A stretch of 64,000 nt of DNA from Psammoneis japonica (lineage: Eukaryota), in assembly GCA_008632985.1 (NCBI GenBank), contig QPGO01000177.1, forward strand, positions 62,001 through 126,000, read 5' to 3'. Within the stretch, counting starts at the first letter, position 1, and each line of letters begins with the position of its first letter. Shown here in pieces: positions 1-41,558 of this stretch. The translations under genes were made by a program, and so were the position numbers. The notes under the pieces are model-generated. The model made no database searches and was not told the origin of the DNA. It saw only the letters and a list, made by a program, of their open reading frames with translations.

Positions 1-2790
1 ACATCTTTCTTGCTTGGCTTTCAGGATCAGCACAGGAATTGTCTTCTGGCAAAGGTGCTCATGCATCAGCTCAACAAAAAGAACCTTCAATTTTTTTTGC
101 ATTTCTCACAAATGCATTTTTAACTTCTGGGCCACTGCTGAAGAAAGGTGGGAGCACATGTTCCCCTCAATTGATGTTTTGAGGGAAGCAGTTTGTTCCT
201 GCTTGCACCAAACACTGGTGCCAATGCTGCACAGTGAGTGGGTTGGCAATGGCAACTGTGCCATCCTCCTCTGCGGCCTTTTCATGGCACACTCACAGAA
301 CTCACCCCAAGTCATGTCACCCTCAATCTCTTTTCCTCCACCCTTGAGGTTGTCAAGTGCAGCCAGCCTGAAGTGCTGCCATGATGCAAAGTGAATGATG
401 CTGAGTGCGTGCCATTTTCATGGTTTGCAGCTGGATTCTTGTCATCCTGGTCAGGCAACACTGACTTGGTGTAGCCACACAGATGATTGACAACAGCAGA
501 CAAAATGTCAATGCGATCTTGCACAACTGCCTTTGCATCAACATTGTTTGGTCAAACCAAGGTCAGTGCAAAAATGCTGCATGCTCACGTTGAATCCCAG
601 CAGTCATGCTGAGGTGCAATTCATTGCCTTGCAGACTCCAACTCTTCAACTGCTTGCATCCCATTGTCTCTTCTTTGCTTGTCATGCTTTGTCACTGTTG
701 AGTGTGTCTGGATTGGTGTCAGAAATGTTTGGATGGCATTTCAGCATGATCAAAAGTGCAGCTCTCTTCAACATTTTGTCTTGACAGCTCCACTTTGCAG
801 CCACACTTCTGCAGAGTCATTGTCAGTTGCTGGTGGACAAAGGTGTCAATGGAGCTTTCCAATGGCAATGAAAAGAAACATCACGTGTCACGATTGTTTT
901 CCACCCTTCTCAAGGCCACACAAGCACTCCATTTGTTGTTGTGCATTCACTCCGTCCGCAATGACACTGTTCTCTTCCATCAAATTTGAAACCCATTGAT
1001 GTTGCCACACAGCTTCTTCAACTCTCCACCCATGATTTGGACTCCCTCATCAATGACATGTTGAATTTTGCATTTCAGTGCTCTGCCCACAGGTCTGCTG
1101 GCATCCGTTGGTTGTGAGCACGAGAGTGTTTCCACAAACAGGCAATGCGTGTGTTTTGATGCAAGTGATTTGCAAATGTCAGCAGACACTCATGATGGGC
1201 TTTTGTGCTTCAGCACCCAGGGACGAGCTTTGCAGGTGGATTGGGAAGGTGGGCACAGGTTGCAGTGCAAAAAGCCAAGGATTTTCAACAGAAGCGGTGA
1301 GCAAATGCATGATTTTTTGTCCTTTCTGGCAATTTTCTGTTGACAATTCTGTGTGAATGCACTTCAGAAATGACCACCAATGACTGCTGCATCAAACCAG
1401 CAAACTGCTTTCATTTGCACTTGCCAGTCCTCAGTGATCACTTTTTCCCCTCTGGTCAATCAAGTTTGTCACCTCATGTGGTGAAAGTGCTGTCCCTGTT
1501 GCAGTGGTTGTGACAGTGTGCTTGAATCAACCCCCTTGGCTTCATTTGACTGTTGTTCATTTGCTGAATGGGTTGGCATTTCTGTGCAAGATCCAGCACC
1601 ATTTCCACATGTAAAAACACATTTTCCAATGCCCAACTCATCACATCATCAAGGCTCTCTGCCATTTCACACCTGCCAGTCCTGAACAACCACCCTTCTA
1701 ATTTGCTTGTCAGCAGGTGTCAAGCTCTCACTGCTCTGAGTGGCTGAGTGCAACTGTTCTTTGGTGCCATTGAGGTGCTGTTGGCACTTTGCACCCAGCT
1801 CAAAAAAGAAAACAATGAATCCTTTCCTGTGTCACCTTGCTTCAACCAGTTTTCTCTAGCACGTGTCACTGCAAGGTGGTGCCATGTGTCCAGCCAGCTG
1901 TGCTTGCTTTTGCCACATCCCTGGTTGGGTGCACTGGAAGTGTGGATCAACTGGTGCCATCATTGTGTGTAAGAAGTTGTCCTCTGTTGAGCTGTCCAAA
2001 TCAAAAAAACCCAAGGTCTGCACCAATGTGTCAGCAATGGCACACATCATCTCAAAAACAGAACAAGTGGTGCGTGCATCTTTTCAGGGTGCAACTTGGC
2101 TTGTCTTGTGAAGACCTTGTTTTGTCAGTTGGCATTGTCTTTGCATGTCTCAGGCAGAGCCACAGTTTGAGGGAGCCATTTTGCACAACTGCCCCATGAG
2201 TTGAAAACACAATTCACACAGCAACTGCAAGTTGAGCAGTGCTGCAGCTGCCAGCAATGCTTTGCTTCACCCAGCAAAGAGGTGTGTGCTTGGTGTTCAC
2301 AAGTCAAGCAGTGTGCAACAAACAAGTGCTGGGATTGGCAACATTGTGTTAAAAAACAGCAGCCAGGCCATGCATCCATTGCAAGTTGCATGTTCAAGCA
2401 AAGCTCAAGAAACTCGTTTGCTGTGTCTGACTCACACCAATCACTGAGCTTGGAAACTGCACAGTGGCAATGGCACCATGTTTGAGACAACTCTCTTTTT
2501 TCACACTCTTTGCACAGGAATGCACCAAGACAGGCAAAATGGAAATGTGGTGCACCCCTTGGGCTAAGTGTTCATTTTGCTGAGAAAGTGCGCTCAACAT
2601 GTTACCACTCGAATCAACAGAAGTGACTTGCGATTGTGACTGAAATGTGTGCGTGCCATTTCGAGCCATTGGATTTCACAATGGCATTGTCACCCAGGTG
2701 AAATGCAGCGAACTTTACACACATGTTTTTCTGTTTTGCCAGTCTTGTCTGTCCTTTGTTCTGGGGGTGCCTGCGATGATTCTCGTCGCT
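1..2790. other. TpA/CpG-depleted hypermutated block A (decayed coding/TE-like sequence, family not identified; runs off the window start)
   Basis: About 10 TpA in 2.79 kb by eye, none between about 474 and 1611. CpG is rare and TG/CA abundant. Six-frame ORFs are nearly Tyr-free and Cys/His-rich. Composition returns to normal near 2790. Confidence 0.85.
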
Positions 2791-3768
2791 GCCACTCTAG
2801 AGAGTAGAGGTCAGCCCGATGGGCTTTCTCACAGCAGCTACTCTAGCAGGTGCTTGCTGGTAGACCTGCCGGCACCGATCAGAGATGACAAAAAATCTAA
2901 ATTAGGAGGAGGTGTGGCCCTCATGCTTTCTTGCTGTGTCAGGACCGTGCTTTAAGTGGCCTCTCAGTGACCACGTCGTGAAAAACCAGATGTTCAACGG
3001 CTTCTGTCCACAAAAGAGACAATCAATTTCTTCCAGCTTCCATAAAATATCTTATCTTGCGATGCTCTACTCTAGAAGTTGAATGCGCCAGTGAAACCCG
3101 TTCGTTGTTCCGCATTGAGACGGAAGAAATGAAAATGTGTCGGTGCGCAGAGTGCCACGCATTCATTGCAGAGCTTGCGAGCCCAAAACACGCATCAAGT
3201 CACGGACTACCTCCCTTTCCATCTTGGGTCATGATTCAGGTCCTAGTCAAGCAGCTGGGACAGTTTCCTGTAACGATTATGATCTCACGTCGTTGCACAT
3301 ACTGTAAAAGCAAAAGGACGTCGAACCTTTTCGAGTCGCCATGGCGGACACAAGGCTCGAAAGAAGGAAGGACTCGAACAGGATTCACAAGCCGATTGGG
3401 CTGATTCTACTAGATCATTTCACACGTGTCCGGTCTGCACAAAGTTTTAAACTCCAGGTGAAGACTAGGGCCCCACTGGATGATTTTTTACCCTTTGGTA
3501 CAGATTCACGCAGCCAGAGGCGCACCACCAGTAGCCTCTACGCGAACAATTTGTCGCTTAGTGTGCTTGAAACCTTCAAACAGATTCGAAAGGGTGTCAA
3601 AAGTGACACTTACCTAATGTCAAGGGGGTTTGAGCCAGTTGCGGAAGGCCCGGTGTGCGATCTACAGGAAGGAAATCCTACGAATCCAATCTAACGGAAT
3701 GAGCTCAGTACGATACTTTCGAAGTAAACACGTGGACACTGTATGCGGGAGCATGGCAGCGTGTCGGA

Positions 3769-4035
3769 TTGTTCGATTTGGCCGAAGGTCGATGCATTGA
3801 AGATACCATGAAAGAACTTTCTCGGAAGTCGCCACTTGGTGTGTCAAAGACGTGCCGACTAGGCGGACAACGTCGTGTTCCAACCCCCCAAAACAGGTGC
3901 CTCCTGTGCCGAAAGCCCAACTGCACAATGAGATGTTCACGATGCCACTGGGCTACATGCTTTTCATCGGACTGTCTGATGGCGGACTGGAGACGTCATG
4001 TACTCGGAGGATGTCTACCAGGAAAAAGCAAATAA
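3769..4035 (+). CDS. MYND-type zinc finger-like ORF (probably the 3' part of a larger, possibly broken gene starting near 3060-3340)
   Basis: CLLCRKPNCTMRCSRCHWATCFSSDCLMADWRRHVLGGC fits the MYND C-x2-C...C-x2-C...C-x3-DW-x2-H-x4-C pattern. Upstream ORFs are fragmented. Confidence 0.45.
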   Translation: MFDLAEGRCIEDTMKELSRKSPLGVSKTCRLGGQRRVPTPQNRCLLCRKPNCTMRCSRCHWATCFSSDCLMADWRRHVLGGCLPGKSK

Positions 4036-4131
4036 TAGGACGAGAAAGATTGAGATGAATAGGCGGCTTTGAGTGCTTGAGAGAGAGCTTGAATTCATGT
4101 AGCAAATTGTACAGCAGATGACATCCTACTA

Positions 4132-5780
4132 TCATTCTGCTATCGATTTCGATTCTTCATCGACCTTGTTCCTCGATTTCTTTTCTTGATTGCTTCTTCG
4201 AAGCTTTGCCATGACAATAAGATCTTCTTTGGTTAGCGAGTTCGATGATGTCATGTCAAGCCGAAGAAACTGGTTCTTGAGCTCGTCCAGTACACTTTTC
4301 TCTACAAGCTGCATTTCTACCAACATGAATTCCATGTACTCGAGTCGCGAAACTTCGCCATCATTGTCATTGTCCATGGCCTTGATATGATCCATTGTTA
4401 AATCCTTTTCCACGAGACTTTCAAAGACTCGATGCCGTCTGTGCTGCAAGAGCGCCGACGCAATTGTCCCCAGAATCTCTCCTCCGGCCGCAACCGCAAG
4501 CGGAATAAAGAGGACTGCCCAAAGTCTTGCACGTTGAGTGGTGGGCGCAAAGTCTCCTAGACCAACTGTACCGCATGTGATTATAGAGTAGTAAATCGAG
4601 TCAGTCCAAGCCCATCCTTCCAGTCGTCCCAAGGCAACGCCTCCCGAAATGAGCAGTGCAAATGGTGGTATCAGCTTGAGCAAAACCTCCCCCACGATTC
4701 GTTTCACAGTCTTTGGTTTTGCTTGAGGTGCAGCTGCAACACCACCAAAGGCGTCCGCTGCATTAAACGGTACTACTGCCGTGACATTGAGATTATCGAC
4801 TGGCGCCGCAGCCATCTCTTTTTTCTTGTCCTTGTCTATCCGACCCAACATTCGTGGCATGCGGTCAAAAACACGCATGGCACTCCTTCGGCTCACTTTT
4901 TCTGCTACCCGGATTGTTTTCATTTCGGCTTCAACCAAGTGCGATCCAATCGATGCCAATGCGGCAGCCAGAAAGGCAATGCCTCCCAACGAAAAGAAAC
5001 AGGTAAAGATTTTGCTTGCACATGTATGAGGGAAAATATCTCCGTAACCTAGAGTGAAATAGAAAAGTTTTTGGTGAGACAAGAGATACTGGGAAGGTAC
5101 GCAAGGATGATGAATCTGCTGTGCTGACCTACTGTAGTGAAACATGTAACGGAGAAGTAAACAGCGTCAATAAGGGTCCAATGCTCCATGAGTATCGAGT
5201 AAAAACAGATCCCGGTAAGTAGATATATTCCAATCGCCACCAAGCATTCACGGAGGGTAAAAGACACTGTCGGTGACTCAAGGCTTTCCTTTTCATTCTT
5301 TCGCTTTCCCCGAATACTAAACAAAACATGAGCCACTGTCGGTCTCATGGGCTTGGCAAAGAGAATGCCTTTCCCCAGACTCCTCATGTACCGTTTCAGC
5401 AGCTGCAATGCCTTGAACGTATGCTCCTTCTTGTCGGAATCCTTTTCTGACGATGGATTCAAAAATAGCTCAGTTCCCCTTCTACTCCGAGAACCGTATT
5501 GAAGGAAGCAATGATTTGCGATGTGCGAATAAGTGCTGTCATCATGCCGATGATTCTTCTGCAAACAGAAAGCACAATGTTGAAGCCGTGATCTTGCACT
5601 ACTTGTGAAACCTGCAGACGCATGAGGCTTACATTTCCAGAGATCCACACAAGAAGATGGCATCCACGCCACTACAGCAGGATAGTGCCAAAGTAACGAG
5701 GCGACAACCGATCCAACGACGCTGCTTCGTATCATCGTTCTCCCTGCTTGTGTCAAGCGTCGATAGATATCATCTGCCAT
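4132..5780 (-). CDS. Two-pore-domain (TPK-type) potassium channel with C-terminal EF-hands; 2 exons
   Basis: Splicing intron 5049-5128 (GT..AG) rebuilds the filter TTVG|YGD. Second filter is TVGLGD. Four hydrophobic helices and EF-hand DNDNDGEVSRLEY. Confidence 0.9.
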
Positions 5781-5995
5781 GGCTCACCCGCGAAACGCGA
5801 GACATCACGAGAGAAAAAATGAGGATGACGTCACTCGCGGTTTGACGACTTCTTGTACCCGGACGCCTGACGAACGCTACCATGCATCGTATCATTCGTT
5901 TGATTTGGCGGCTCTACTAGTAGCTAGAGTAGAGTCTGGGCGGATCTAGGAGATTACGCTCTCTTTAGCTTTAGCAGCCTTTATAACGTTACACT

Positions 5996-7064
5996 CTATT
6001 GATCAAAATAGTTGAGTCCCTTTTGGAATCGATACGTGTCTCGCTCCGCATCGACTGCTGCAGTACGCCATTCCTCGCGAAAGTTGGATCCTGCCGGAGG
6101 TAAGGGTTTGCCGGCAATTACGGCTGCAATATCATCCTGAATATCCAATGGTTGATACTTTCGAGGGTATCGGCGGAGTGGAAGGCCCGTTCTGGCATCA
6201 ATGAGGAACTTTTCAAAGTTACCCTCCACTTTTCCTAGACCCTCGGGCGTTCGGCAGGTACCTTCCAACCATCTCCAAAAGGGATGCGCTCCACTACCAA
6301 GGAGATTTACCTTGTCTGTCAGAATGGCAGCGGGATTAATAGCATAACCGTATTCAGAAGCCAATTTGAGACGAATCAACGCAGATGTGTCGGGTTCATA
6401 GTATCCCTGGTCGGTCGGGGATGCAATGACTGCAAATTCTCCGTTTCGGCCATATCTATTGGAACAAAAGAGCATCCAAATCAGAGAATGGAATTAAAAT
6501 GAAATAGACACAAAAATTATGCATTCCAACTTACTTGGCTGCGAGTGAGATCATTTCAGGAATGTTTTTGCGTGCAATAGGATCATCCTGCTTGATGTTG
6601 ACCACAAGAACAGCTTTCACCTTGGACTCGCCAGTCTCTGCATCGCGTTCTTGGTTGATTAGTTCATTAAACGACGTCTGTCTACCAGCCACTGGCAAGG
6701 AAAAATCATAGGCAGTTCGTGAGTCGGTACGTTTCCTCGGTGCTGGCGTCTCCTCCTTTTCTGCTTCGGCTTCAATGCTTTTGGAAATTTTTGCGGCGCG
6801 TGCGGCAATGGAACCAAAGTCCTCGTCCTCATCTGCATTTGCAACGCTAGCAGCAATTGCAGCAGCTGTACCCACAAGGGAGCTAACAAAGCCGCGGCGT
6901 GTTGGCAACGAATCCTTATTTTCTGCTCCTTCCAATGACATTACAACCCGACTTCTCGGCTGACCTGGTCGTGCGGTGAATAACATTTGTGACGACCATC
7001 CCTGCACTGAAATAAAAGGTGCCGTCGCAACAAGCACTACAAAGACACTACTGAACCGTCGCAT
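5996..7064 (-). CDS. Glutathione peroxidase-like (thioredoxin-fold) protein with plastid/thylakoid-type presequence, lacking the catalytic Cys; 2 exons
   Basis: Intron 6456-6534. Motifs AYDFSL, VLVVNI, HPFWRWL and GNFEKFLID align to the GPx consensus. N-terminus has a signal peptide plus an RRGF..AAAIAASVANA twin-arginine-like segment. Confidence 0.8.
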
Positions 7065-7654
7065 GGTATTGCTCCAACTTCAAACTGTATGCAAGCTTTA
7101 CAAAAGTCGTGGAATCATGGAGCAAAGAACGTCGATGCGGCTTGTCTCGCTCATCCTGCCAGATGGAAGATTTCCCGCCATCATCGTCGAAAGTCGAAAC
7201 ACGTATGCGTGCACGGGTGAGGATCAGACGAGAGAGTTTTTCAATATGCATTTATTCATGCTGTAATATCTGGAATACTGTACATCATCAGTACAGTACT
7301 GTACTGAACGATAGTAGAATGAATGTATGGTACTGTATATATTTTTAAAAATGTCTTCGCCGCGATGAATCATATAGTCAAAAACAATCGCTAATAAATA
7401 TATAGTTCTTCAATTTTGATACTGATCGGCGGTTCAACCGATGCTTGCCTCCTCTCACATCTTGGCGACACGAAAAAAGCGAGGTGCTCCAAAACTCGAA
7501 CGAAAGGCACCACGAGCAATCGAGAATGCTGTCGTAAAGAGCACCTCTCCGGGACCAAAAAATCATAATTTTACGCGAGACTACAAACGGTTGGTTCCTC
7601 ACCATAAATTTTGGATGAGTGTTGATTGACCGTTCGAACTAGACGTTATTAGTC

Positions 7655-10600: not shown

Positions 10601-10840
10601 GTTCCTGGTGCGTACTGTGGGTTGGCACTAGATCCACCTCGAAGACTCCAACCTGTCCCGGCACTCAGTCCAAAGGGACTCAAGGCTGCGAAACGCTATG
10701 GCGAAAAGGTCCTTGCCAATGCTGCGATCCCTACAGTGAAAGCCACGCCGAGCGGCGTTAGGTATGCCAGTGATAAACAAGTCAGCGTCATTTACGAAGA
10801 AGGCAACGTTCTGTTCTTTGTGGACGTTCACCCTGAATAA
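7655..10840 (+). CDS. Secreted mucin-like (PSxxPS/PT repeats) protein with two DTYxDGICC modules and a C-terminal leishmanolysin-like zinc metalloprotease; two apparent frameshifts (about 8075 and 8545) and intron 9771-9857
   Basis: HELSH zinc motif, ENSGGAGTAGVHW, DELMSG Met-turn and PLSRITIASLADVGY. P/S/T repeats continue across the frame breaks. Confidence 0.8.
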
Positions 10841-10992
10841 AGCTGCTGCTATTGCTCGAAAATGCTATTGATTCGTGCAGAACAAAAAAAAAACAGAGAA
10901 TTCATTATTCATGCGTCTCACTTTGACAACAAAAACGATAGACTGTAATAGATTTAAACATATCCTTGATGTAATAATATCTTTTTAGACTT

Positions 10993-11390: not shown

Positions 11391-11629
11391 GGCTGATTTT
11401 TTTTTGTTTCGTTTTTTGCGTCGGAGTTGGAGCGGTCGGACGAGTCAAACACAGTCGCGCGAGGAATCTCTACACGGTAGTCTATGTACCGTATGATAGG
11501 CCCTATTCCTACCGGCATCGGCAGGAGCCCGAAAGCGAACTCCCAGAACACTCAAACGCCTGTTCAATTTCCATGACTTTGCGGCTGTGACCGATGGCAC
11601 ACATGATAAGTGCAGGCCTGCAAATCTAA

Positions 11630-12510
11630 ATCAAACTGTGACAACAATGGATGAATGTGCTGGACCTTGTGGGCCTTGTGCGTTTGCCGGGAAAGAAGGG
11701 AGACGAGACTGTGCTCGCATCAAAAAGAGCAGTGGCTGGCAAACTTGTCAGCGAGTGTGGTGGTTTGAGAACACAGCTGGCTTTTGTGTGGCAAACAGCA
11801 CCAGGCATGCAGGGAGAGAGAGGTTCTCTTTGCTTTTTTGTCAAAGCATGCCAGGCGCCACCAACACTGCAATGAGGAGCCGCGCAGCCAAAAATGCGAG
11901 CTCCGTCAAGCGCCTGCTGCGCCTCTCAAGGTCAGCCAAAGGTGGGGCAGCTTTTTTGCACATGAAAGCTGCCATGTCACAATGGTGCACTGAATGCCAA
12001 GTCAACAAAAAGCTGTCTCATGCTGGAGAGAGCCGCCCACAGCATCGAGCGTGTGTGTGGGTGGCAAAAAGATGTTTCTTTCTTTTCAGGCAGGCACCAC
12101 ATTCCTGTGGAAAAGATGAGGCTGAGTGCACCCATGAGATCATTGCCATCATCACTGCAAAGGTGACAATGGCTCTGTGCTTGCTTTTGTGCTCGCCAAT
12201 GCTGCTGCTTGTCTCGCACTGCTGGTGCGCTGCGACAGGAAACAGGAGCACGAGAAAAAATGAGTGAAAATTTTCTTGTTGTGGTGGCCAAAAATTCCGG
12301 TTTTTCATTTTGGGGTTTGTTGTTGATTGCACCCCATCTCTTGGGTGCTGTGAGTTATTAATGCCACATTCAATCTTTGCACATGACAGGCCCAGTGCCA
12401 TGATGCATGCACCGGTGGCAGTTTTTGACGACGCACCGACCCCCAGCTAGCACGCACGACCGCACGACACGCGACACGCACGCGGACACGCACGCGCACA
12501 CGCACAATTT
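11630..12510. other. TpA-depleted block B (short relic; CpG partly retained)
   Basis: No TpA from about 11631 to 12355 although CpGs persist. Ends in an ACGCAC-rich tract at about 12428-12505. Confidence 0.8.
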
Positions 12511-12535
12511 TCAATTTTTCTCGAATGCAACGGCA

Positions 12536-13877: not shown

Positions 13878-13971
13878 CAGTAGCAAGTGGGAACCATAGA
13901 TGCTGCATAACAACAGATCCAACAATAACTATTCTCATACTTTACTCTACTATTGACGTGATGCATGTTGC

Positions 13972-16230: not shown

Positions 16231-16447
16231 GGTGGAGAAAGTTGTCGTGACAGTGATGACAGTGAGAAAGTGAGAGTAGAGAACCCGGAAATACGATTCA
16301 ACGATGTATTCATATACGAATAAATATATTCAAAAAATCTTGCGGCCTCCATTTCATCGTCCGTCCTTTTGTCCCTCGCCGTATCTTTTGTCACACACAA
16401 TCAGTCATTTGCACCACACACACACACAAAAAACTATCTACTACACC

Positions 16448-19400
16448 ATGAACAACAACACTACTACTGTCCCTGTCGCTCCAGCGTTACGTCCCGTTTT
16501 GCCCAGTCATGGAACGGCCAAGGTGAAATCGGTCCAATCCGGTGATACCGTCGTCTTGTTGGGCAAGGCTCCATCTCCCAATGCACCACCACCTCAAGTG
16601 GTTTTTACCTTTGAACGCGTCACGGCACCGAGGTAAAGTAATTTTGTAGTCGTATTTTTATATTCAATTTGTACAAATTTCTTATTCAATATTTTTTGTT
16701 CTTTCCAAACAACAGAATGGCATCCAAAGCCAATGCCAATCGTGATGACCCCGGTGCCTTTCCGGCACGAGAATGGTTGAGAAATTTGATTGTTGGCAAA
16801 TCGGTTCAATTTGAAACGCGGTACGTGGAGAGGAGGAGGAGTGGGGTTGATTTATGCATATCTTTATGTGTTCAACTCACCTATTTTTCTTTCGTTACTC
16901 GTCACTCACCTCATATTTCACAGCAAACAAGGTGCTACAGCGGGTGATCGTGTGTATGGTTTGCTCTTTTATACAGATCCCAATTCGGGTCAAGTCTTGA
17001 ATTTGGCTGTAGAGAGTGTTCGAAACGGTCATTGCATTCCCAAAGTGTTTGGATTGACGGATGATGCGACAGAAGACACTACGAATGGCGAAGCCGCCGT
17101 GGATGATTACGAAGCACAATTGCAAGCGGCTCTCAATCAAGCCAAACAAGCCAATGTCGGTGTCCACGGCAGTGCACCACTGGTTCGTACGATTCAAAAT
17201 GCCGGTGAATCCTTTGAAACATTGGCATTGATTCAACAAGCGAAAAAATTGTGCAATTCCACTATTTCGTGTGTCATTGAATACATTTTTGATGGATCAC
17301 GGTTTCGTATACAAGTGACGGACCCCGAAATGCAAAATTTGCAATACGCCAGTTTTACCTTGTTGTTGGCGGGCGTTTCGTGTCCACGCATGGCCAATCC
17401 CAAACTCGATACGCCCAGTGAAGAATTGGCCGAGGAGGCACTCCAATTTGTCAATGTCCGATTGTTGCATCGTGAATTGAAAATTACATTGCACGGAACT
17501 GACAAGGCGGGTATCTGTGCCGTGGGGACCGTTCATCATCCTCGTGGGAACATTGCCGTGGAACTACTCAAGAATGGATTGGCCAAAACGTCCGATTGGA
17601 GTATCCGACTCATGGATCCCAGTGATGTGCCAGCCTTGAGAATTGCAGAAAACAATGCAAAGGTAAAGTGTTGTGGAGTAGTGATTTGTTTTGCTGTAAC
17701 GTTGAATACAACTTGTTTTACTCACACGCTTTCTATTCTCTCTCTCTCTACACACACAACACAGAGGACAAACACGGGCGTGTGGCATTCGTACGCTCCA
17801 CCGCAATTATCGGGTGCATCCGAAATTGTCGGAACTGTCGTGGAAGTCATCACGGGCGACACTCTATCGATTCTCCCCAATGGCGTGGCATATGATTCGG
17901 AATCCAAACTCGAAAAGGTATCCCTGGCCAGTGTCCGTGCACCCCGTGTTGGCAATGAAAAACTGGGGAGGGTGGATGAACCCTATGCATGGGAATGCAA
18001 GGATCGTTTGCGTGTCTTGACAGTGGGCAAACCCGTCAAGGTGTCGATTCATTATGAACGTGATATTCCCATGGGACCCGACAGTACGGAAAAGAGACAA
18101 TTTGGTACAGTTTCGGTGGGTAAACGAGAAGATGTTGGTGAAGTACTTGTGGCGGAAGGATTGGCCACGACCCAGAGGCATCGTGATGATGATGAAAAGT
18201 CACCGCGTTATGATTTGCTTGTGGCGGCAGAAGTGAGTATTTTTTTATTTTTTGTAGTGGTTTGATGAGTGTTTTGATTTGACTGACCCATCCTGTTTCC
18301 CAATTCGTACTATGCATTGACAGGCCAACGCCAAGGCTGCGAAAAAGGGCATTCACATTACAGACAAACAGTACGGCCGACGCGCTGTGAACGATTTGAC
18401 AGATCCCAAAAAAGCCAAGGCCTATTCTGGATCACTGATGCGTGCCGGCAACATCAAAGCCATTGTCGAATACGTCTTTAATGGATCACGTTTCAAGCTG
18501 CTGGTTCCGTCCGAAAATTGCAACATTGTCTTTGCCGCATCCAGTCTTCGTTGTCCTCAGCCATCACCCACCATGGGCAGTCGCACCACCAAGGCGGCCG
18601 AACCCTTTGGAGATGCCTCGAAACGTCATGCGCGCTTGACCGTGTTGCAACGGTCGGTCGAAATTGTGTGTACCGGAGTGTCCATGGGCGGTGTCATTAC
18701 AGGACAAATCTTTGTCGGACACGGAGGTCAGCGTCGAGATTACAGTTTGGAACTGGTCGGTGCCGGTCTGGCCACGTTGGATCCGCGCAAGGTGGAGTAC
18801 GGAGAAGTACCCAAAATGCTGGTGGATGCTCAAAATGCTGCCAAGAATAACAAGGTTGGAATTTGGTCTCTTGTACAGGCTACGCCAGAGGTAAGTAGTT
18901 TTATTGTTGTTGTCTTTCTGTTGGTATTGTGGTAATCATGTTGACGGTCATGTAATAATCTCATTGCTGTCTAATTTTTTTTGTCAACAGGCCAAACCAG
19001 TCGTGACTACCAAGGCCAAGGAGCAAACCATTCAAATTCGACTCAGCGAAATCAAGAGTGGAAATCACTTTTTCTTTCAAAAAGTTGACGACGAGGCTGC
19101 CAAAGTCATGGACGAAAGCATGAAGATTTTCACTTCCAACAATGGCACCAACGGAGCTCCGTGTGATGTCAAGGTGGGCAAGGTAGTGGCTGCCTTGTTT
19201 AACGATGGCAGTGGCAAGAGCTGGTACCGTGCCAAGATTATCGAGCGGCCCGCCGCAGGCAAGGCCCGAGTGCTTTTCATTGACCACGGCAATTCGGAAT
19301 TGGTTCCCGTCGCTACCCATTTGCGCCCCTTGGATGCCAGTCTCGGCACGGAGCGTGTCCCTGCCGTGGCCAAGGAAGCCCAGCTTGCCCTGACGGTTGT

Positions 19401-19743
19401 GCGTCCCTTGTCGGACGATGAAGGCATGGACGCGGCCAGGATGCTTCAGAGTTTGGCGTGGGGCAAGGATCTGACCGCTCGTACCTTTAGCGATATTGAC
19501 GGAAAGCTTGCTGTGGTCCTCATGGATGAGAGCGATACATCCATTAATGAGCAACTTGTGGCTGCTGGACTCGCTCGTACAGTCAAGCAAACCGATGTAG
19601 ATTATCTGGAATCGAAAATGTTGGACGGCAATAGCCTGGCGAGCTTGTCTGCGGAATTGAAGGTTGCCCAGGAAACGGCTCGCAAATCTCGTGCTGGAAT
19701 GTGGCGATACGGAGATGTTGGCGACGAAGACGAGGAAGAGTAG
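16448..19743 (+). CDS. SND1: Tudor staphylococcal nuclease (Tudor-SN/p100), about 6 exons
   Basis: Four SNase repeats (VKSVQSGDT, IEYIFDGSRF, VVEVITGDT, VEYVFNGSRF), a Tudor domain (WYRAKI..VLFIDHGN) and C-terminal GMWRYGD. GT-AG introns lie at the ORF junctions. Confidence 0.93.
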
Positions 19744-27927: not shown

Positions 27928-28439
27928 TTTGAGAAAGATTTTGTTTTGGGTGTACATAAGTAGTAACATTTCAGCATGATCGTGTTTCTTCCCTTTCTCA
28001 CAAGGTTCCAAGACACTCTAAGAGTAGTCCCATTACCAGTTGTACTCCAATCAGAAACGACCGCTTCACTTTTCCCAACGTATTGATGGAAACGAAAAAG
28101 ATGCGCTAGTATCACCGTTCCAGGACGCCACACCTCCCTTTCTTTTGAATGTTGTCAGCCATATTCTTGCATTTTTACAATCGCTTTTCATGCCTTGTGC
28201 ACGACGAACTTCGCACCACGATGACATCAGAGGAGGTTAAGAGAAGGAACCACATCGTCGCAGCCGATGTGCCTCTCCCGCCCTGAGCATGAACGACGTC
28301 GGAAGCAGCCTTGCAAAATGCTGTTCAGGCGGGCGTGCTTTGAAAGAGACCGAAGACATTGCGATTGCATGCACGACACGCACGGCACGACGGGTGACTG
28401 TGAAATGCCAATGCAGTTGCCAACGGGGAGAAAACCTCG

Positions 28440-29800
28440 TCTCCAGAGGCACTTGCAAGGCAGATGTCTCTCACCACACCAGCAACGTTTGACAACTTTT
28501 GGAGCTCAGCTCTGGTGGCAGGCCGCTTCAACGGCAGCTCCACACTCAACTCATTCTTTGCTTTCAGCTGGTGCATGGCCACACCACAACTCTCGTTGCA
28601 GGGAGTGTCCCCATTGGGGCACTTGTGCCAGAGACTGGGCCAAGAACCACCACAGTTGTGTGCGTGTCCTTCACAACTTTGTGCATTGCCAAAATGGCAC
28701 TGTCAAAATGAGCTTTTTTCTCATGGAGGACCCCTTTTTCTTGAGCTCTTTTGCCTGTTTGTCCAAGCTGCTCAGCAAGAAGCAGGCACAACAACATTGG
28801 CCAAGGCAGCAAGCCTTTTGTGGTGGCTTTGTCAGCAGCTGGCTGTTGCTGCTGCTGCTGTGGCTGATGTTGTCATGTAAAAAGATCTCAGCAGAGGAGG
28901 GCAGACAAGTTGAGTCAAAGGGCTGGTTTTGGGTTGGCTTGTCTTGACATCTCTCATTCTTTCTTGGTCATTTTCAGGCTCTCTCTCAGTGGCCTCCCTG
29001 TTTGTGGTCTGGCAGGATGAGAGAAGGAAGGTCAAGCTGTAGCAGGCAATTGTGTGGTTGAGCCCAATGTTTTGTTGGTTGTGTTGCCCTCATCATTTGG
29101 GGTGCAGCAGCTCTCCAGTCAAAGCTCTGGCCCTGGTGGTTCCCTGGGTGCCCATGGCTTGCACACCACAACCCCAGCCAAAGAGATTCACAGAGAGGGC
29201 AGTCAGTTGGCAATTCTTGTTTGGCGTGTGTTCCATGGTGGTCATGGTGATTGCAAACAAGACAGAAAAACAGCTGTGTGTGACAAAGATGATGATTTCA
29301 ACATGCAGAAAAATGTGGCCAAATCACCACACACAATGGGTGCCAAAATGTGGCTGCATTGAGGAAAACAAACAGTGCACTGCTGCCCACAACTTTGCAA
29401 ACTGCTGGCATGGGGATGATCTGATGGCATCTGGGACAGATGGTGGTCATGTGCCAGAGGAGAAAGAAAGTGAGCAAAGGAGAGATCATTGGATCTCTCC
29501 AGTCTGTCCATGCCAGTCTGTCCAACACAAGGGAGTGTGCTCGCTGTCTTGGATGTCTGTCAGAGATGGTGGCCTGTGCGCCCCCTCTGTTTCATGTTGC
29601 AGCTTTTGCATTGTCTTGTGTGGTGCAGAAGCATTGCATGAAGCTGTGAGCATCAGCGGACCTGCAGCAACCTCACTTTTTTCTTCCATCATTGTGCATT
29701 GATGAGGGACACAAGAGCTTGAGCACTTGCTTGCAGCCTGCGATGCACGCTTTGCACCCTTTGTAACATTGGCCCTCTGTGAGCCAAAGCTCTGCAGTTC
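28440..29800 (-). pseudogene. Decayed paralog of the ZNFX1-like gene 3' end (RZ finger, RING-like and NF-X1 regions)
   Basis: Minus strand reads QAKELK..AMH..HNCGGSWPSLWHKCPNG..CGVAM..VAGVVRDI versus QAEELN..AMH..YNYGGSWSSHWYECPNG..CGMAM..VGGVVRDI in the 41671 copy (firm for 28464-28790). Weaker matches further on: CPLCESL~CPDCRSL, DPMI~DPII. Confidence 0.8.
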
Positions 29801-30089
29801 TGGGCTCCCCACAGAAATTTGAGCTGCAGCTCAAGGTCTGGGGTTCAGTGTTTGTGGCTTGTGCAGTTGCATGCTGCAACCAACCTGAGCACTCATCCAC
29901 AAACATCAAAGCCACAATGAGCATCTGGTCTGCTGGGAATTTTCCTCAATCAAGGCAGCAAAATCTCCATTGACAGACAGATGCAACACATGGAAAAGAT
30001 GCCAGAGCATGCACAAAATGTGTTCTTACCTGACAATTGTGCAGCCCCTGCTCTGCAGAGTGGCAAAGGCAACCAAGCGTGCAGTGCAT

Positions 30090-31800
30090 CAAGTGCAAGA
30101 CTTTGCCAAGATGTGACAAGCTGTGCTTGTCAGTGGTGTGAAAGGCAAAGCAGTTTTTCTCCTTTCTGGGCTGGTTGTGCACAAAATGACTCTTGTTCAT
30201 CTGGATCCATTTGCTTGCACAGCAAAAATGTGTGAGGGTTGTCTTTGCACAGCACACCCTGCAGGCACTTTGCATCAAACAATTTGCAAATGCTCTGTGC
30301 TTGGTCTCCTTGCACTTCTTGGTTGGGGTCAAATGAGCATCTGTGCCACCCACCAGCAATCCACATGCATCAAAATCATGCGGAAGCATTTTGACAAGCA
30401 GCAGCTGATGGTGAGGGCAGACAAACCACTCTGCAGTCATTTTCAATTGGCCTTTCTGCCAGAAACTCATGGAAGTCCTTTTCACACTCTGTGGCCACCA
30501 TTGCAACCATTGCACACTCTCCATGTGTTGACAACAACCATCTCAAAGACTGAGAAATGAGTGCAGTTGGACCAGCCCTGGGTGCCCAACTTCTGTTTAA
30601 TCTGCAGGTTGCCTTGCCTGCTCCTGTTGTGCTGATCAATCTTTTTGCAAGTGTTGCAGAATTTGTCAAGCTCTTTCCACTCAGGGTCAGCACCCATGCT
30701 GACTTCCTCATCCTGGTGCCAATGACCAACAAACCCTTGAGAGCTTGCCATTCCTGTGTCATCCAGTGACAAAGTGTTGGCAATGGAAAGGTTCTTCCAA
30801 CCACAATCCATCCGGACAAAGGCAAGTTTATCTTCATGACTGTCCAGCCCCAAGGTGAGAACTCCTTGACATTGTCCACACTCGGCAAGCTCAATGCCAC
30901 AGAGATGCTGTGTTGCAACAAACTTCAGCATGACACAGCACAACCATCCAGCCCCAGTGTGATGGCTCCCTGGCATTGTCCATGCTTGGTGAGCTCAACA
31001 CCCTGGAGATGCTGCATCAGAAACTTCTGCATGGCAGTCTCAACAATGCCAACAAATCATGACCTGAAGCAGCACCCCACTTCTTTGACAGTGCCAAACA
31101 ATGCACAAATCTGTGCAGACAATCCAGTCCACATTGGCCCATGGCTGCACAAGTTGTCTCAAGCAACAGCTTCATGAAGCAAGCCACTGTTGTCCTTCCT
31201 AGATGCCAGCATCTTCCAACTTTGCTGTCTTCACCAACTTGAGCTTCAGCATTGCACCACTCTGCTCACATGCCAAATTCTGCATCTCACGTGCATCCTT
31301 GGGCTTGCAATCAACTGCATGCTGTGTGCTGTGGGAGGCCAACATTGATCCAGTGCCCACACCAAGACCACACCACCTTAAGATGGACTCATTGACACAA
31401 ATGTCAGTCAACTGCAAGAAGTTGGTTGTCCGGTTTTGTTTGAATGCCTCCACAAAGTCATCCACCAATTTCCAACTGCACTCTTGAGATGGCATTCCTT
31501 CTGCTGCTCGCTCATCTTGCTGATCACTGAACTGAGCTGAAATGTGCAAGATGTCAAAAACCTGTTTTGTGACATGCCAGTCTTTGCAAATGCCGGTGCT
31601 GCATGACACTTTGATGCGGTTTTGACCAGAGCTCCAACTTGGCATTGAACTCAAACATCATTGCAAGAATGCAAATGCATAAAAACTTCAGCAACTCAGA
31701 CAGATTGGTGTCAGCTGCTTTTCTTTTCCTCAGTTGCGTGCTGTTGGCAAGTGCAACAATTGCACTGAGATGGTTGGTCATGCCTCAATTGAGGTCCTTG
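30090..31800 (-). mobile_element. Decayed piggyBac-family transposase (stramenopile type)
   Basis: Fragments ELLKFL..MFEF..LWS, WKLVDDFVEAF, ICVNESILRWCGLG, LKLKLVKT, LAFVRMD, IDQHNRSRQ..LGTQGWS, HLTPTKK and a Cys-rich tail occur in piggyBac transposase order. Multiple frameshifts; no intact TTAA/TIR found. Confidence 0.85.
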
Positions 31801-32009
31801 GTAGACTGGACACTGGCACTGGCTACCACAGAGACTGCTGGCCACTAGAGAGAGGAGAGAAGAGTCGGAGAGGGATAGAGGGCGATCGACTAGCGACTGC
31901 TGGGATCTTTCATCTTTCACGGGCGGATTGAACCTGTGGGCCGACCCGGCGCCTATCTCTGACCGCTTCAGCGTAACTACGAGTTCCAGCACTAATCCAA
32001 CAGTTGAGC

Positions 32010-32739
32010 ATCGAAAAATGCTTTGTTTGCCTTTCTTCGGCCTCTCTAAAGCTATCTAGAATTGCAATCCAACAATCACAGTTTACACCTAATACCATTC
32101 AAAAGCAACTTCTACGAATACTCGTTCCCCCCTAGAATGCAGCTGCACAATCTGGGAGAACGTAAACATTTTCTTCTTTCTCTTGCAACTTAAAACTACA
32201 AACTTGTGGTGGTGTATCCAGGGCGAGATGCAACACCAAACCGGTAGATGTGATCGAACGGCCTCCTCAAAACAAGTTGTGCGTCTCAGTTGTGACTCGT
32301 TGTAACGACAGGCCCTCCCACTGCTGATGAAATCCTCCTTCTACTCGCGGTAGAGTCCATTCGGACACCATTGTTATCGAAAAGCTTTGTTTGCCTTTCT
32401 TCGGCCTCCCTAAAGCTATCTAGAATTGCAATCCAACAATCACAGTTTACACCTAATACCATTCAAAAGCAACTTCTACGAATGCTCGTTCCCCTCTAGA
32501 ATGCAGCTGCACAATCTGGGAGAACATAAACATTTTCTTCCTTCTCCTGTAGCTTAAAACTCCAAACTTGTGGTGGTGTATCCAGGGCGAGATGCAACAC
32601 CAAACCGGTAGATGTGATCGAACGGCCTCCTCGAAACAAGTTGTGCGTCTCAGTTGTGACTCGTTGTAACGACAGGCCCTCCCACTGCTGATGAAATCCT
32701 CCTTCTACTCGCGGTAGAGTCCATTCGGACACCATTGTT
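32010..32739. repeat. Tandem duplication of about 365 bp (32010-32375 and 32376-32739) covering the VTC gene 3' end and 3' UTR
   Basis: Near-identical direct copies with junction ...caccattgtt|atcgaaaagc. The outer copy has a CGA->TGA stop on the minus strand. Confidence 0.95.
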
Positions 32740-35707: not shown

Positions 35708-36289
35708 TCAGTGAGTGGATAGCAAGGCTTTGAAATGTGAGAGGTGAGTGACGAAGTGAGTTGATTGTTTTTGTGATGCCTACGAACGAGCGATGACTGT
35801 CAGTAAAAGGATACCAGCATGACTTCTCTGCGGCATCATATGACATCATTTTCGAGTAGAACTCTACTGTGAACTGTACTACTGTAAAGTGGTCAAGGCA
35901 TAAATCTGAATCGTAATGTCTCGAAATCCAAGGGTCATTTATGTCTATTGCCTATACAAAACCTTGTTAGTCGTAGATTTGACACTTTGCGATACACTCT
36001 GTATTAAGAAATTAGAAGTAGTGATGATGAGCCGGAATCACTCTCGAGGTCTACGGAGAGCAAAAATATCTATAAGGAACATGTATGTTGAGGAAACACA
36101 GATCGTGCTTCCGGTTCTTTTGCCGTCGACAGAGCTCGCTACGAAGTGAATTCGGCGTTCTCGCTCCGCGTTCACCGTTACTCATCAAGGATAGGTGCAG
36201 TACACCGCGAGCCTGGCTTGCGTCGACTTCCCGGAAAGTGACATCATACATCGTCATTCCACCAATCAAATGAAGGGATTTTTTGCGTA

Positions 36290-39200
36290 GCCTTCATTGA
36301 CATTTTCGTGACGCACCCTTTGGGTTTCGCAACGAACAACGTGACTTCCCTTTTGGTCTTGTGGGTCAAAGATGGATTGCAGGTTTGTGGTCGATTTCAT
36401 CATCCGGAGCTTGCAATGAATGGGTTGGGGACTTCCAAAAAAAGCAGATGCGGGCCAGCACTCCATCGCGACTTTAAAAAAAGCGTGCCGCACAGCAGAC
36501 CTGCAGACAAAGTGCAATGAGCTGCCATGTGGCAGAGCTGAGCAGAGCTCCTCATTTGCAGTGTCACACAGTGCACAAGTTGGGCTGGAGCACAGGTGCA
36601 AGCCACGTGCCACAGACCAGCTTCTCCCCATGTCTTGTCTCCCACTTTCAAGCTGCCAGACAAAGCTTTGAACTCTCGCGCAACAGCAAGGACGGACAAC
36701 TGAGTGAGAACCAAACACACAATGAGAGCTCAAAATTGTTGCACACAGCAAGTCGGCATGAAAGTGGCTCTGGTGTGCCCAACAATGAGGATGAGGGCAA
36801 GACCAATCATGCTCAAACTGCAAGTGCACACAACCAAATGGAGGGGCCAATGCACCGCAACAGCCCAAAATTGTTCACAAAAGCCAGCTCAGCAGGACTT
36901 TTTTGTCAAGCTCCAAGTGCAGCCATGGCATGCAAACAATGTGAAAGCAGTCCTGGAGCACACCCAACAATGAGATGAGCATGAGATTGATCATGCTCAA
37001 CTCCAAGGATGCACAACCAAATGAATCACACACACTGATGTTGTCCAAACTTGTTGTGCGAGAGCCAATCTGGATGTTTTTGTCAAGTTCCAAGCAGAGC
37101 CATCATGCACAAACAACATGAAACTGGCTCCAGCACACCCCAACAATGAGCCAAACAAACAAATGTTTGCCCATTTTTGCTGAGCTCACTCCAAGCCCAG
37201 CTGCTGCACACAAACAATGCAAAAGTGGCTTGATGTGCCCAAAAATGAGGACAAGCATGAGGTTGTCAATGAGAAGCACTTCCTGATGCAACCCAGAATG
37301 ATCAGCAGTGCCAGTCACTGACGTCAACCCCACAATCCACAGCTCAATCCATGTCGCTCAGAAAGCTTCAACAATGTGAACAACAAAATGTCAGCACCTT
37401 GCTCTGGAGCATGAGATGAAATGAACAACTGTGAGCAAGACAAGGGCAGGCAACAACACCCCCAAACACACCAAAGCACAACCCTGCTGCACCACAAGTC
37501 GCTTTTGATTTTCTCACCAAAGTGCCACAAACCACACGTGTGAGTCACAGGATGGGGGTTGTCAGTGGGATCAAGAGGTGGTCATCATTGAAGCAAGCAT
37601 CGAAGAGGTGAGCACCACCATTTTCACCGTTGATCATGATTTTTGAATTTGTGTGCTCATTGTTGGAAAAGTGACTGCACCGTGTGGGCATTTTGCTCAA
37701 ATTGCACAAATTTCATGCAACAAAATTTTGAAAAAATGCGCTGCCATCACAGCAATCATGCCATGCACTGTTTGAATCATGTTTTCTCAAAACTCTGCTT
37801 TTTGCTCAAACATGCCATGTTTGAGCAAATGGGGCTCAACATTTGAGCAATCACTCAAACACATGCATTTTTTGAGCAATTGCTCAAACGTGCTGCTCAA
37901 ATTTTGAAAGAAAGAGTCGCAAGCAATTGAGTCCATTGCCCACATTTTTTTGTGCACATGTTCACAATCTTAAAATGCACACAAGTCATTGAAATGACTG
38001 CAATCAGCCATTCTCAGGAATGTTCCTGGTGCTGCATCAACTTGTGTGTGCACATCAACTTGCATGTGCAAGGTGCAGTGTCAGCACACTTCTTCTTTGC
38101 CTTTGCTTCTGGCCTCCAATGCACCCCACACTCTGTTCTTACACCCTCCAGCTTCGGTGGCACCCCAATTGTTCTAAACATGTGGCACTGTGCAGGCAGC
38201 TGCATGGGCATTGGCGCAAAATGGCACTTGTTGTTGTTTGAAAACCCACAGAGCCAAGTGCCACAAAAGCACTTCTTGCTCTGTTCACATTTTCCCATCA
38301 ACCTGAAAATGGCAGGAATGATGCTGCAGTGCCCTCATTTCAGCAGCTGGCAAAGATGACGGGGGGGGGGGGGGGGGGGGCACAGATTACAACCTCAGCT
38401 GCTGATCCACAAAAAAGCCCCACAATGTGTTGCTGGGTGATCAGCAAAAAAGGCACTTGTTTCAGCGGCTGCATCTCATCACACCCCTGCAAATTTTTTA
38501 GAGTGTCAGCAATGCAAAGAGAGAAAAAGTTCACTGCTTGTGAAATGACCCTGTCAGACCAAGCACATCATCAGCAAATGGCAGCCATGAAGCCCAAGCA
38601 AAAGGCACCCCATGGCAGCAAGACACGCCAATGCTTTTTGCCAAGAAGAAGCTGCTTGAGAATGCTGCAGTCAAGTGCAAGATTTTGACATCACATGTTC
38701 CAGCAAGAGGTGCACAATGCCACTGTCCACCACTGGTGGAAGGTTGGGTGGCAGCTGCCCTCTGGACAGAGGACACAAGTGCTGTGAGGGCTCCACACAG
38801 GGAGGTTCAGAAGGCTCAGAACTGGAAAGCTTGCTTTTCCAAAATGAGAACCAAGTGTGCAGAATGAGGTGTCATGGCAGAAGGCAACAAGACTTGGCGG
38901 CCCTCTCTTGGGGTCACCCCACTTCTGCTGGTCTTGTGCACTTCCTTGTTGCTGTGTTTGACCCTCCCTTGATCAGAGAACACAGCATCATTGTCAGCAA
39001 TGGAGGCCAACACACCAATGGCAGGGACAATGGAGGAATGAGACAGCACAGGGGAAGGTGGCCACATGCAGTGCAAGAGCAAACCACTGAAGAAAACAAC
39101 ACATGTTGCCAACATTGCTCTGCACCCCTGGAAAGCTTGCTGGACAAATGGAGTGCAACCTGGAGTGAGTCAGCATTGGAAGCCGGCAAATGCTTGGCAG

Positions 39201-41558
39201 GCAAGTGTCCCAACAATTTGCCACTGGAAGAGTTGGTGTGCTTGTCAATCTGGCACACTTCCTTTGCACCACATTGCTCCCTCCCCTGATCAGAAAATGA
39301 AGGATCATTGGCAGTGATGATGGGCAGGTCCAGAGTGCCATGAAAAGCAAATTTAGATGTGACACAACAGTCCTGACAATGGAGAAAAGGCAGCAAGACT
39401 TGGTGGCCCTCTTTCATGGCCGCCCCGCTTCTGTCAGGCTTGCTCAGATGATGGAACAAGGAATGACGGCATCGCACATCCAAAATTGATGACAGCCGAG
39501 GCAAAAATCTGAAGTTGAGAGACTTGACAACTGGCAATGTGGTGATGATGTGCATCAGTGGCATGCAACAGCATTGCAGGGGCTGCAGGCAGCACAGGCA
39601 CTGTCTTGGGAGGAGACGACAATTCCTCTGTCTTGTGAATGATGCCACCATTGCATGAGACAATGGAGTGACCAGGAACAAGATGCTTTGTGGGTTGAAG
39701 CAAGACACCCTTGATGTTGCAGGGATGTTCCACTGACTTGGCAGGCAATGTCAGGAAACCAGTGCCAACAGTGACAGCAGATGGCATGCCCATTGGCACC
39801 ATGAAAAAATCATCCATGCCAGCTGCAGAAGGATTCCCATCCAAAGACTGCAGAGGTCAAGGCACTTTGAGGAATGAAAACTTGGCAGTGGAAAACTCAT
39901 TCCAGCCCCAATGATTGCATTCCACGTTTGGATCAAAGCGCACATGCAAAACGCGGATCGCAATGATTGCTGCTGTCTCTTGCATCTTGAGGGTCTCTTT
40001 TGGATTGCCACCTAAAGACTCTGGAGAGCAAGACAAGTTTTGTGGAATTCCCCTGGCATGACAACTTGCAAGTCAGCTTTGCAAACAATCAATTTAACCA
40101 AAGAGACATCATGGGGGTGCATGACAAAAGGTGGGATGCCACATTGGGCAACAGGGTCATGGAAGAGCTGTGCAAAAGAGCTCTTGGGTTTGGTGTGATT
40201 CACACCTGCAAAGAAACAGTCAAGATCAACAATTGAGCCTGCACAGTGCATGTTCAAATGCTGCTGAACAAGAGGTTCAGCATCATGACCACAAAAAATG
40301 CACTGAACATTGGGCAAAAATGCCCGTGTGGGCATCTGCAATGTCATCTGGCATCAAGCTGACACTTCTGCATGGAGCATCCCATTGGTGAATGTCACAA
40401 GGCAAAGTGACCTGATGGCAATGATCTTTGGATGCAGTGGGCTCAATGGGGCTCAATGGGCTCTCCATGACACCTGTCACATGCCATGTGTGGCATTGGA
40501 CATCCTCACATGAGTCCACAACAAGATCAGATGTGAAAATTGATGGAGGAGTTTTCTCCAACAATGGCAGAGACAAAACCACTTGGTCAGATGCTTGTGG
40601 TGCAAGGGAGAGCTGGCTTCAGTCTGTGTGATGCCATTGCAGATCAGAGTTGAAGCACATGTGCTCCATGCCAACTGCAATTCATGCTGGCTCTGTCATC
40701 TTGCCAGTGTGGAGAGCAAGTTGGATCTTCTGCTCAAGCGTTTGTCTGGAGAGGCAAGATGTAGAATTGCAAACACTTGGAGCCACAACCTTGAGAGCAG
40801 CTTGGCTGAAGATCAATGCAACAGATGCTGCATCCTTGGGGGTCCTCACACAAGGTGTGATGAACTTGTGAAGGTCATGGTCCCGCACAAGCTCGAAAAC
40901 ACCATCCTTGGCTTGGGTGTGTTTGTTGTCTTCAAAAAACTGATCCAGGTCAAAAATTGTGTCGCCACAAGTTTGCTCAGGAACTTCATGTCATCAGGGA
41001 AATGAGGGCTTTCCTGAAAAACAAAATCAGTTGCAGCGAGTGTGTCAATGATGCTCTTTTCAATCATTGCGATCCGTCATGATGGTGCAAGTGCACAAAA
41101 TTTTTTGATCATGCACACGCAGAAACCTGGTGCTGGTCTGGCAGGGGGCCTGTGAGCCAATGAAACAAGCACTTCCAGGATCAAAACTGGTGGCATGCTT
41201 GTTCAGCTCACAAACCACCCAAAGGAATCTTGGCGCGGGAGTTTCAGTGCAGAGGAACAATGAGAGAGAAGCAGATCTCAGAAAGATCTGCTTGTCTGTC
41301 TGGGTCTGTCCTTCATCCGCATGCTGGCAGCTGCGCTGGTGTTGCCTGTTGTTGCCACCCACATCGCACCCTTGTGACTCTGCTCAATTTACACATGGTG
41401 GTCTGTGTGATGCTTTTTGGCATCTTTTGGCTTTGCTTCCAAACAATGCTCTGCTCAACGCTCATCAGGGGTGCAACGGAAGTCGGCAAAATGGCAATGC
41501 GAAATGCTGTTCCGGCGGGCATGCTTTGAAAGAGACAGACGGACACACACGCATGCTC
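36290..41558. other. TpA/CpG-depleted hypermutated block D (decayed coding relics, degenerate repeats, probable TE end)
   Basis: About 11 TpA in 5.3 kb. Abrupt right edge at ...gcatgctcgt|actgtattgttattacg. Contains a G20 run at 38361-38380. Confidence 0.88.
37690..37905. repeat. Cluster of direct and inverted TTTGAGCAA/TTGCTCAAA motifs (subterminal-repeat-like)
   Basis: About 8 full or partial copies in both orientations, including the palindrome tttgagcaattgctcaaa. Confidence 0.7.

Follow-up and report, generated by a model that had tools for sequence, protein, structure and literature searches.

Introduction

To our knowledge, the targeted hypermutations described so far in repeats are in essence C>T changes, as in fungal repeat-induced point mutation (RIP), in APOBEC activity and in the decay of 5-methylcytosine (5mC). 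The ADAR and APOBEC editing footprints of animal retroelements are deaminase hypermutation fossilized in transposable element (TE) copies. Very short patch (VSP) repair in Escherichia coli depletes CTAG towards CCAG and CTGG in 5mC-bearing DNA; we can name no other known process that drives words containing TA towards CA/TG. For dinoflagellates, the available part of one study describes 5-hydroxymethyluracil (5hmU) with a preference for TA and TC that, alongside 5mC, marks TEs (PMC11572971), so that a TpA-directed mark on repeats is plausible; the available part of another notes hydroxymethyluracil at TpA on both strands (PMC11804724). Here we analyse 64,000 nucleotides of Psammoneis japonica (Eukaryota) DNA (GenBank assembly GCA_008632985.1, contig QPGO01000177.1, positions 62,001 to 126,000 of the forward strand), called the window throughout, in which four blocks, B1 to B4, have lost nearly all of their TpA dinucleotides, and three of them most of their CpG in the core, with a matching gain of TpG and CpA. 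A search of the literature outside subscription journals returned papers on fungal RIP, APOBEC/ADAR and base editors, and in the portions available none described TA>TG/CA hypermutation of repeats.

Location and composition of the blocks

We surveyed the window by 500-bp sliding counts, TA gap lists and full dinucleotide tables, with expected counts from background frequencies and Poisson P values. A preliminary description of the window had claimed four bounded, TpA-collapsed blocks, and all four were recovered at the places that it gave, with P from 9e-13 to 5e-67 and TA edges that are sharp to less than ~20 bp. Their parts, which carry no strand, are as follows.

1..2600, B1 core, cut by the window start: TA 8 against 99 expected (P 3e-32), CG 17 against 151
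2601..2790, B1 right margin: TA-poor, 2 against 7 expected; CG normal, 8 against 11
11628..12356, B2: TA 0 against 28 expected (P 9e-13), CG 21 against 42
28239..28659, B3 left margin: TA 0 against 16 expected (P 1e-7), CG 22 against 24
28660..31800, B3 core: counted over 28660-31700, TA 9 against 116 (P 6e-38), CG 16 against 176
36290..36475, B4 left margin: zero TA, CG plentiful (read from the sequence)
36476..41390, B4 core: TA 9 against 187 expected (P 5e-67), CG 51 against 285
41391..41560, B4 right margin: TA 0 against 6 expected (P 1.5e-3), CG 9 against 10

The observed/expected ratio (o/e) is 0.03-0.04 for TpA and 0.10-0.18 for CpG in the cores of B1, B3 and B4. The dominance of TG and CA that had also been described is equally clear, at o/e 1.7-2.0 in the blocks (1.8-2.0 in B1, B3 and B4) against 1.15 in the background, that is, the window outside the blocks, where TA stands at 0.56 and CG at 1.01. 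The combined deficit of TA and CG is close to the combined excess of TG and CA in all four blocks (225 and 250 in B1, 49 and 51 in B2, 267 and 287 in B3, 412 and 447 in B4), and the G+C content of the blocks, 0.47-0.51, is not shifted. When unbiased conversion of all TA and CG was simulated in ordinary DNA, CA/TG o/e came to 1.94-1.98, against 1.90 observed. The effect is regionally confined: the 9794 bp of intergenic spacer that lie outside them have normal values, with TA o/e 0.73 and CG o/e 1.11.

Direction of the change

The direction of the change can be read from a host gene and its partial copy, from a transposase and its family, and from internal duplicates, which involve the following features.

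41671..45779, minus strand: intact ZNFX1-like helicase gene with an RZ zinc finger (Pfam AAA_11, AAA_12, ZnF_RZ-type), adjoining B4
30108..31775, minus strand: decayed, 5'-truncated PiggyBac-family transposase in B3 (tblastn to residues ~233-750 of a 750-aa relative)
30836..31036, no strand: internal tandem duplicate in B3, which serves to time the conversion, 97 positions aligned with 22 transitions
36757..37150, no strand: tandem repeat in B4, 207 positions aligned with 53 transitions

The left margin of B3, at 28295-28660, is a partial, converted paralogue of the ZNFX1-like gene that corresponds to its 3' end. Set against the intact gene copy, it keeps not one of the 15 TA or 11 CG steps, 8 of the TA and 9 of the CG now reading TG/CA, and 63% of TA bases and 55% of CG bases have changed compared to 22% elsewhere. 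A transition-tolerant alignment to 41479-41871 finds 12 of the 13 TA steps of the gene copy as TG/CA in the paralogue; the gene copy itself (41561-41871) is unconverted.

The B3 transposase is homologous to DDE_Tnp_1_7 transposases over the catalytic region and is thus assigned to PiggyBac. An exhaustive search with it retrieved 405 relatives at E<=1e-3 (best 3e-41), and PF13843 is present in all four near-length relatives (E down to 7e-36), although the Pfam model itself gave no match to the decayed copy. A 427-codon read-through of its frame holds eight stops, and the extent of the tblastn match places the 5' truncation within ~50 bp of the right edge of the block. Of 184 conserved columns 83 are kept. 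In comparison with 47 intact PiggyBac relatives, none of nine conserved Tyr survives, four being replaced by Cys and one by His (codons TGC three times, TGT and CAT), and conserved Arg is kept at 6 of 21 positions (4 of 6 with AGR codons), the losses including four Cys, two His, one Trp and one Gln. Other conserved residues fare better, with Gln kept at 4/4, Lys at 4/5 and Trp at 7/9.

The preliminary description would have been undone by source elements equally free of TpA. We find the opposite at the public loci of relatives, where TA o/e is normal in 80 of 80 (0.39-0.75, with CG at 0.36-1.16); these are the best 80 of 272 by score, a selection that favours intact copies. The source elements were therefore not TpA-free. 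Five metagenome PiggyBac loci (L002, L008, L009, L063 and L069) have a CpG o/e of 0.36-0.54 with normal TpA, a pattern of ordinary methylation decay from which the TpA process is absent.

Within the blocks, 28 of 107 aligned pyrimidine-purine steps of the internal duplicates read CA in one copy and TG in the other. These doublets hold 14 of the 22 transitions of the B3 duplicate (7 doublets) and 30 of the 53 transitions of the B4 repeat (15 doublets). They fit an independent resolution of ancestral TA or CG in each copy, so the conversion followed the duplications. Paralogue, transposase family, relatives' loci and internal duplicates thus agree on conversion and not native composition, and the regional, both-strand change of TpA to TpG/CpA proposed in the preliminary description is upheld by all four.

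Separation of TpA loss from CpG loss

The loss of TpA and the loss of CpG are two separable processes. TA loss is the more complete of the two and runs 170-420 bp past the CpG-depleted core. The block extents first described accordingly hold for TA, but the CpG loss stops short of the TA loss at four edges; the CpG depletion described with them holds for the cores of B1, B3 and B4, but B2 is only half depleted (o/e 0.45). B2 and the four margins thus lack or nearly lack TA, with CG in the margins at or near expectation.

A public PiggyBac relative, P0009, seen as a protein with a 741-aa open frame, extends this separation to a better preserved element. It keeps 1 of 11 conserved Tyr (five are Cys and three His), yet 24 of 27 conserved Arg and 83% of conserved columns, as compared to 10/11, 9/11 and 8/9 conserved Tyr in three intact controls. 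TA-type changes account for 14 of 42 in P0009 and for 1-2 in each of five controls. Its frame stays open because TA>TG/CA never makes a stop codon. Tyr falls below 1% in 5 of the 150 listed relatives. Since TA is lost where CG is intact, in B2, the margins and P0009, the TA loss is independent of CpG deamination.

Read support

The bases of the blocks are real as far as the public reads go. Independently built contigs of public run X1, which are probably of short accurate reads, judging from their depth and exactness, match the window across three block edges with 0-1 differences, and X1 word depth over the blocks is 55-68, the same as in the flanks. The window and the X1 contigs differ at a few other places and are therefore not one identical consensus. 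Along the blocks TG and CA follow one another in random, interleaved order (runs z = -0.2, 0.3 and 2.7), so that each site is an independent event. The X1 contigs break inside a 364-bp duplication beside B3, described below.

A second run, X2, does not cover B3 and B4 except for a 40-nt piece: its contigs stop at 28257 and start again at 41567. These ends lie within 7-18 bp of TA-free edges, and ~330 and 104 nt past the neighbouring genes' stop codons. Were X2 to be RNA, the TA-free domains would begin where transcripts end, which we offer as a lead only and not as evidence of expression. A third run, X3, gave no cover.

Content and surroundings of the blocks

Two further repeats and one gene complete the features used here.

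29170..29703, no strand: high-copy repeat segment inside B3 (summed X1 word depth 3542 against ~63 in the flanks)
32010..32739, no strand: unconverted 364-bp tandem duplication beside B3, taken as a negative control, 96% identical, with 17 TA and 15 CG per copy
16790-19743, plus strand: Tudor-SN type gene with SNase repeats and a Tudor domain over three frames, probably with introns

Summed X1 depth in B4 reaches 456 at 38782-39315 and 679 at 40918-41451 (again against ~63), and in the PiggyBac part of B3 it is 77-118, near single copy at >=80% likeness. Some block segments are thus high-copy repeats and others near single copy at that likeness. In B1, B2, B4 and the left part of B3, neither the open reading frames (ORFs) of at least 90 aa nor a read-through of all six frames gave a Pfam match, and there was no PiggyBac similarity; no homologue was found for the frame in B4, and none of 57 candidate short-ORF copies of the B3 transposase scored. 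The TE-derived setting suggested in the preliminary description is shown only for B3, a PiggyBac element; B1, B2 and B4 gave no homologue. Apart from a similarity between 28302-28359 and 41488-41546, no block is related to another. No Rfam family was found in the 64-kb window.

The genes that flank the blocks are ordinary compact eukaryotic genes by Pfam, with products that include a 14-fasciclin-repeat protein, a HEAT-repeat protein, Tudor-SN, VTC, a two-pore K channel and the ZNFX1-like helicase. The last of these adjoins B4, and the left margin of B3 holds the dead, incomplete copy of its 3' end. ACGCAC-rich short repeats lie at outer margins of B2 (12451-12505), B3 (28370-28395) and B4 (41540-41556), possibly as a shared terminal or boundary motif. 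The right ends of B1 and B3 (2790-2815 and 31835-31860) share a similar word, GCCACT(C)TAGAGAG, where TA and CG return, and the two blocks are otherwise unrelated. At 58298-59098 on the plus strand there is a sub-threshold match to an HhH-GPD base-excision glycosylase (E 7e-4, 20.4 bits against a cut-off of 26.2). The stretch 51000-54500 has an A-over-T skew of 0.30-0.43 and TpA o/e of 0.17-0.44, with normal CpG and no excess of TG/CA; its ORFs have no Pfam match, and it looks like compositional coding bias rather than conversion.

Proposed explanation and alternatives

The explanation that we favour, with a probability of roughly 0.62, is a targeted, TpA-specific A:T>G:C mutagenesis in silent domains, to which 5mC decay at CpG is added. 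The blocks would be non-genic silent segments (a dead PiggyBac element, an incomplete and dead host-gene copy, and other, partly repeated DNA) that were rewritten after arrival by two context-specific transition processes. One, CpG>TpG/CpA, would be the usual decay of presumably methylated cytosines. The other, TpA>TpG/CpA, would be a separate and stronger A:T>G:C transition limited to the self-complementary TpA step, each site being hit on either strand independently; a converted step, now TG or CA, would no longer be a substrate, and this would account for the 50:50 split of products and for the lack of TA>CG. This second process is ~97% complete and can act alone on an otherwise young element. 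It is probably driven by an enzyme or a base modification and aimed at silenced chromatin, where it may act as a RIP-like, irreversible inactivator that substitutes Cys or His for Tyr throughout a protein, a behaviour suggestive of a role in genome defence.

Two candidate chemistries have roughly equal odds: adenine deamination to hypoxanthine at TpA, and a mutagenic T modification that mispairs with G. TadA/ADAT enzymes act on A after U. A more specific proposal is put forward tentatively, at somewhat less than an even chance: a natural, chromatin-targeted DNA editor, either a DNA adenine deaminase or a mutator that modifies thymine, changes A:T to G:C at TpA before and independently of CpG decay, as RIP in mirror image. 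Such an editor would remove all Tyr codons and all TAA and TAG from silenced elements, create no new stops and preserve composition. Regional, near-complete A:T>G:C change at one dinucleotide would add a new mutational chemistry to genome defence, and it would point to a natural enzyme with an activity for which adenine base editors had to be engineered.

Duplication alone appears insufficient as a trigger, since the 364-bp duplicate and the functional gene copy are both unconverted; each could, however, have been spared for another reason, the gene through selection and the duplicate because it is short and recent.

Several observations weigh against the favoured explanation. The blocks are those of a single 64-kb window; transposon identity is established for B3 only, the PiggyBac part of which is near single copy; and the B3 family comparison rests on few columns, 9 Tyr and 21 Arg. 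P0009 was compared as a protein, and the read evidence is that of one sample, perhaps the assembly's own source, with its platform not on record. In addition, GpC o/e is raised to 1.34 in the blocks overall (1.33-1.53, the highest being 1.53 in B2) against 1.03-1.11 in simulation, TGC/GCA occur at 77-84 per kb against 55-61 simulated, and TGCA is at 3.4 times its background-scaled count; the preliminary description does not mention the rise in GpC. Simple conversion does not account for this GpC excess, and we have rejected neighbour-blind conversion as a complete model because the GpC and TGC/GCA excess is left over. The two suggest a neighbour preference for TAC>TGC, although a full bias of this kind is estimated to fall still short of the observed value.

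Among explanations that accept the change as mutation in DNA, the simplest has no targeting: a neutral spectrum would favour TA>TG/CA and CG>TG/CA, and the blocks would be old, unconstrained DNA at equilibrium. The blocks are indeed noncoding or dead, as the eight stops in the transposase frame attest, B3 is old by its kept columns, and background TA is already low; but the non-block spacers are normal, the block edges are sharp, P0009 has lost its Tyr far too fast for background decay, and the copies of the 364-bp duplicate differ at 10 substituted sites of which one is TA versus TG, all of which makes a neutral spectrum unlikely. The errors of DNA polymerase eta (Pol eta) at WA are A>G, and error-prone patch repair of this type, triggered by T:G mismatches from 5mC deamination, would give the TA and CG changes a common trigger and link both to methylated DNA. 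Such patches were among the candidates of the preliminary description and are now disfavoured: AA shows no depletion (o/e 1.21 in the blocks against 1.16-1.18 in background and simulation), and TA is lost without CG in B2, the margins and P0009; moreover, conserved Lys is largely kept in the B3 transposase, and a change that is 97% complete at TA and confined to it does not resemble the error spectrum of a polymerase, so that we hold this explanation to be distinctly improbable. An overshoot of a VSP-like repair that guards 5mC, turning replication-error T:G at TpA into C:G, would work in the same direction as the CTAG depletion of E. coli and likewise in 5mC-bearing DNA, but we allow it a small chance at most, since T:G mispairs would have to be frequent and the loss would proceed slowly, a poor fit to near-complete loss in young P0009 and to TA-only zones where CG has not decayed.

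The remaining alternatives place the pattern outside mutation of the block DNA. Conserved Tyr and Arg replaced by Cys, His, Trp and Gln, a converted host-gene paralogue beside an unconverted gene, internal duplicates that carry CA/TG doublets and 80 TA-normal relatives leave hardly any room for elements that were always poor in TA and CG, by selection or foreign origin, an idea that has the block composition itself in its favour and nothing beyond. A further route is RNA-level A-to-I editing, or reverse-transcription errors, fixed via retrotransposition; in its favour, ADAR has a preference for a 5' U and its product is A>G. PiggyBac, however, moves as DNA; RNA editing is excluded for B3 because that element is a cut-and-paste DNA transposon, and since a non-mobile gene fragment and the margins are converted too and strand-coordinated tracts are lacking, we consider this route highly improbable for the whole. 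Misreading of modified bases at TpA and CpG in heterochromatin would be favoured by the single sample of reads and by the heavy T and C modification that protist repeats can carry, according to the available part of PMC11572971. Per-strand misreading, though, predicts molecules that are all TG or all CA and alternative paths at half depth, and we instead find TG and CA in random order, single X1 contigs at full depth (55-68) across the edges and converted codons that make sense as fixed substitutions. The base-calling artefact on which the preliminary description said it would fall is thus not supported by the X1 contigs, and we judge its probability to be slim.

In practice, the blocks defeat homology-based TE annotation, as when Pfam missed the B3 transposase, and distort dinucleotide and codon statistics. 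They are also a built-in record of the DNA that the cell treated as silent.

Comparison with known systems

VSP repair leaves a weak genome-wide bias in one pentanucleotide, whereas here every TpA in a region is converted nearly completely. ADAR/APOBEC footprints are strand-coordinated clusters made via RNA or cDNA, whereas the blocks have no such tracts and include a DNA transposon and a gene fragment. The 5hmU of dinoflagellates, in the available part of PMC11572971, is similar in being a T modification that prefers TA (and TC), lies on TEs with 5mC and silences them, but it is an epigenetic mark for which that part reports no T>C outcome, and TC is not affected in the window.

The decay of 5mC at CpG shares with the blocks the change CG>TG/CA, a CpG o/e of 0.10-0.18 and confinement to TE or silent DNA. 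The reciprocal gain expected of it is present, with 9 of 11 CG of the paralogue now TG/CA and Arg replaced by Cys, His, Trp or Gln, and it would account in full for the CpG half of the pattern. It does not explain the whole, as 5mC decay leaves TpA untouched and the TA loss is stronger, wider, found also without CpG loss and independent of it.

Fungal RIP is a parallel in form, since both consist of dinucleotide-specific transitions near saturation in repeats or TEs, with sharp borders, some spill-over into the flanks and irreversible inactivation of coding sequence. The genes of this organism are not fungal-looking, however, and RIP mutates both copies of a duplication, whereas here the 96% identical 364-bp duplicate and the functional gene copy are untouched. 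RIP is a C>T change at CpA that makes TpA and AT-rich DNA; the blocks show no gain of TpA (o/e 0.03-0.04) and no AT enrichment (G+C 0.47-0.51). As the preliminary description had recognized, the direction is opposite to that of RIP: TpA is destroyed by A:T>G:C change while CpA and TpG are doubled.

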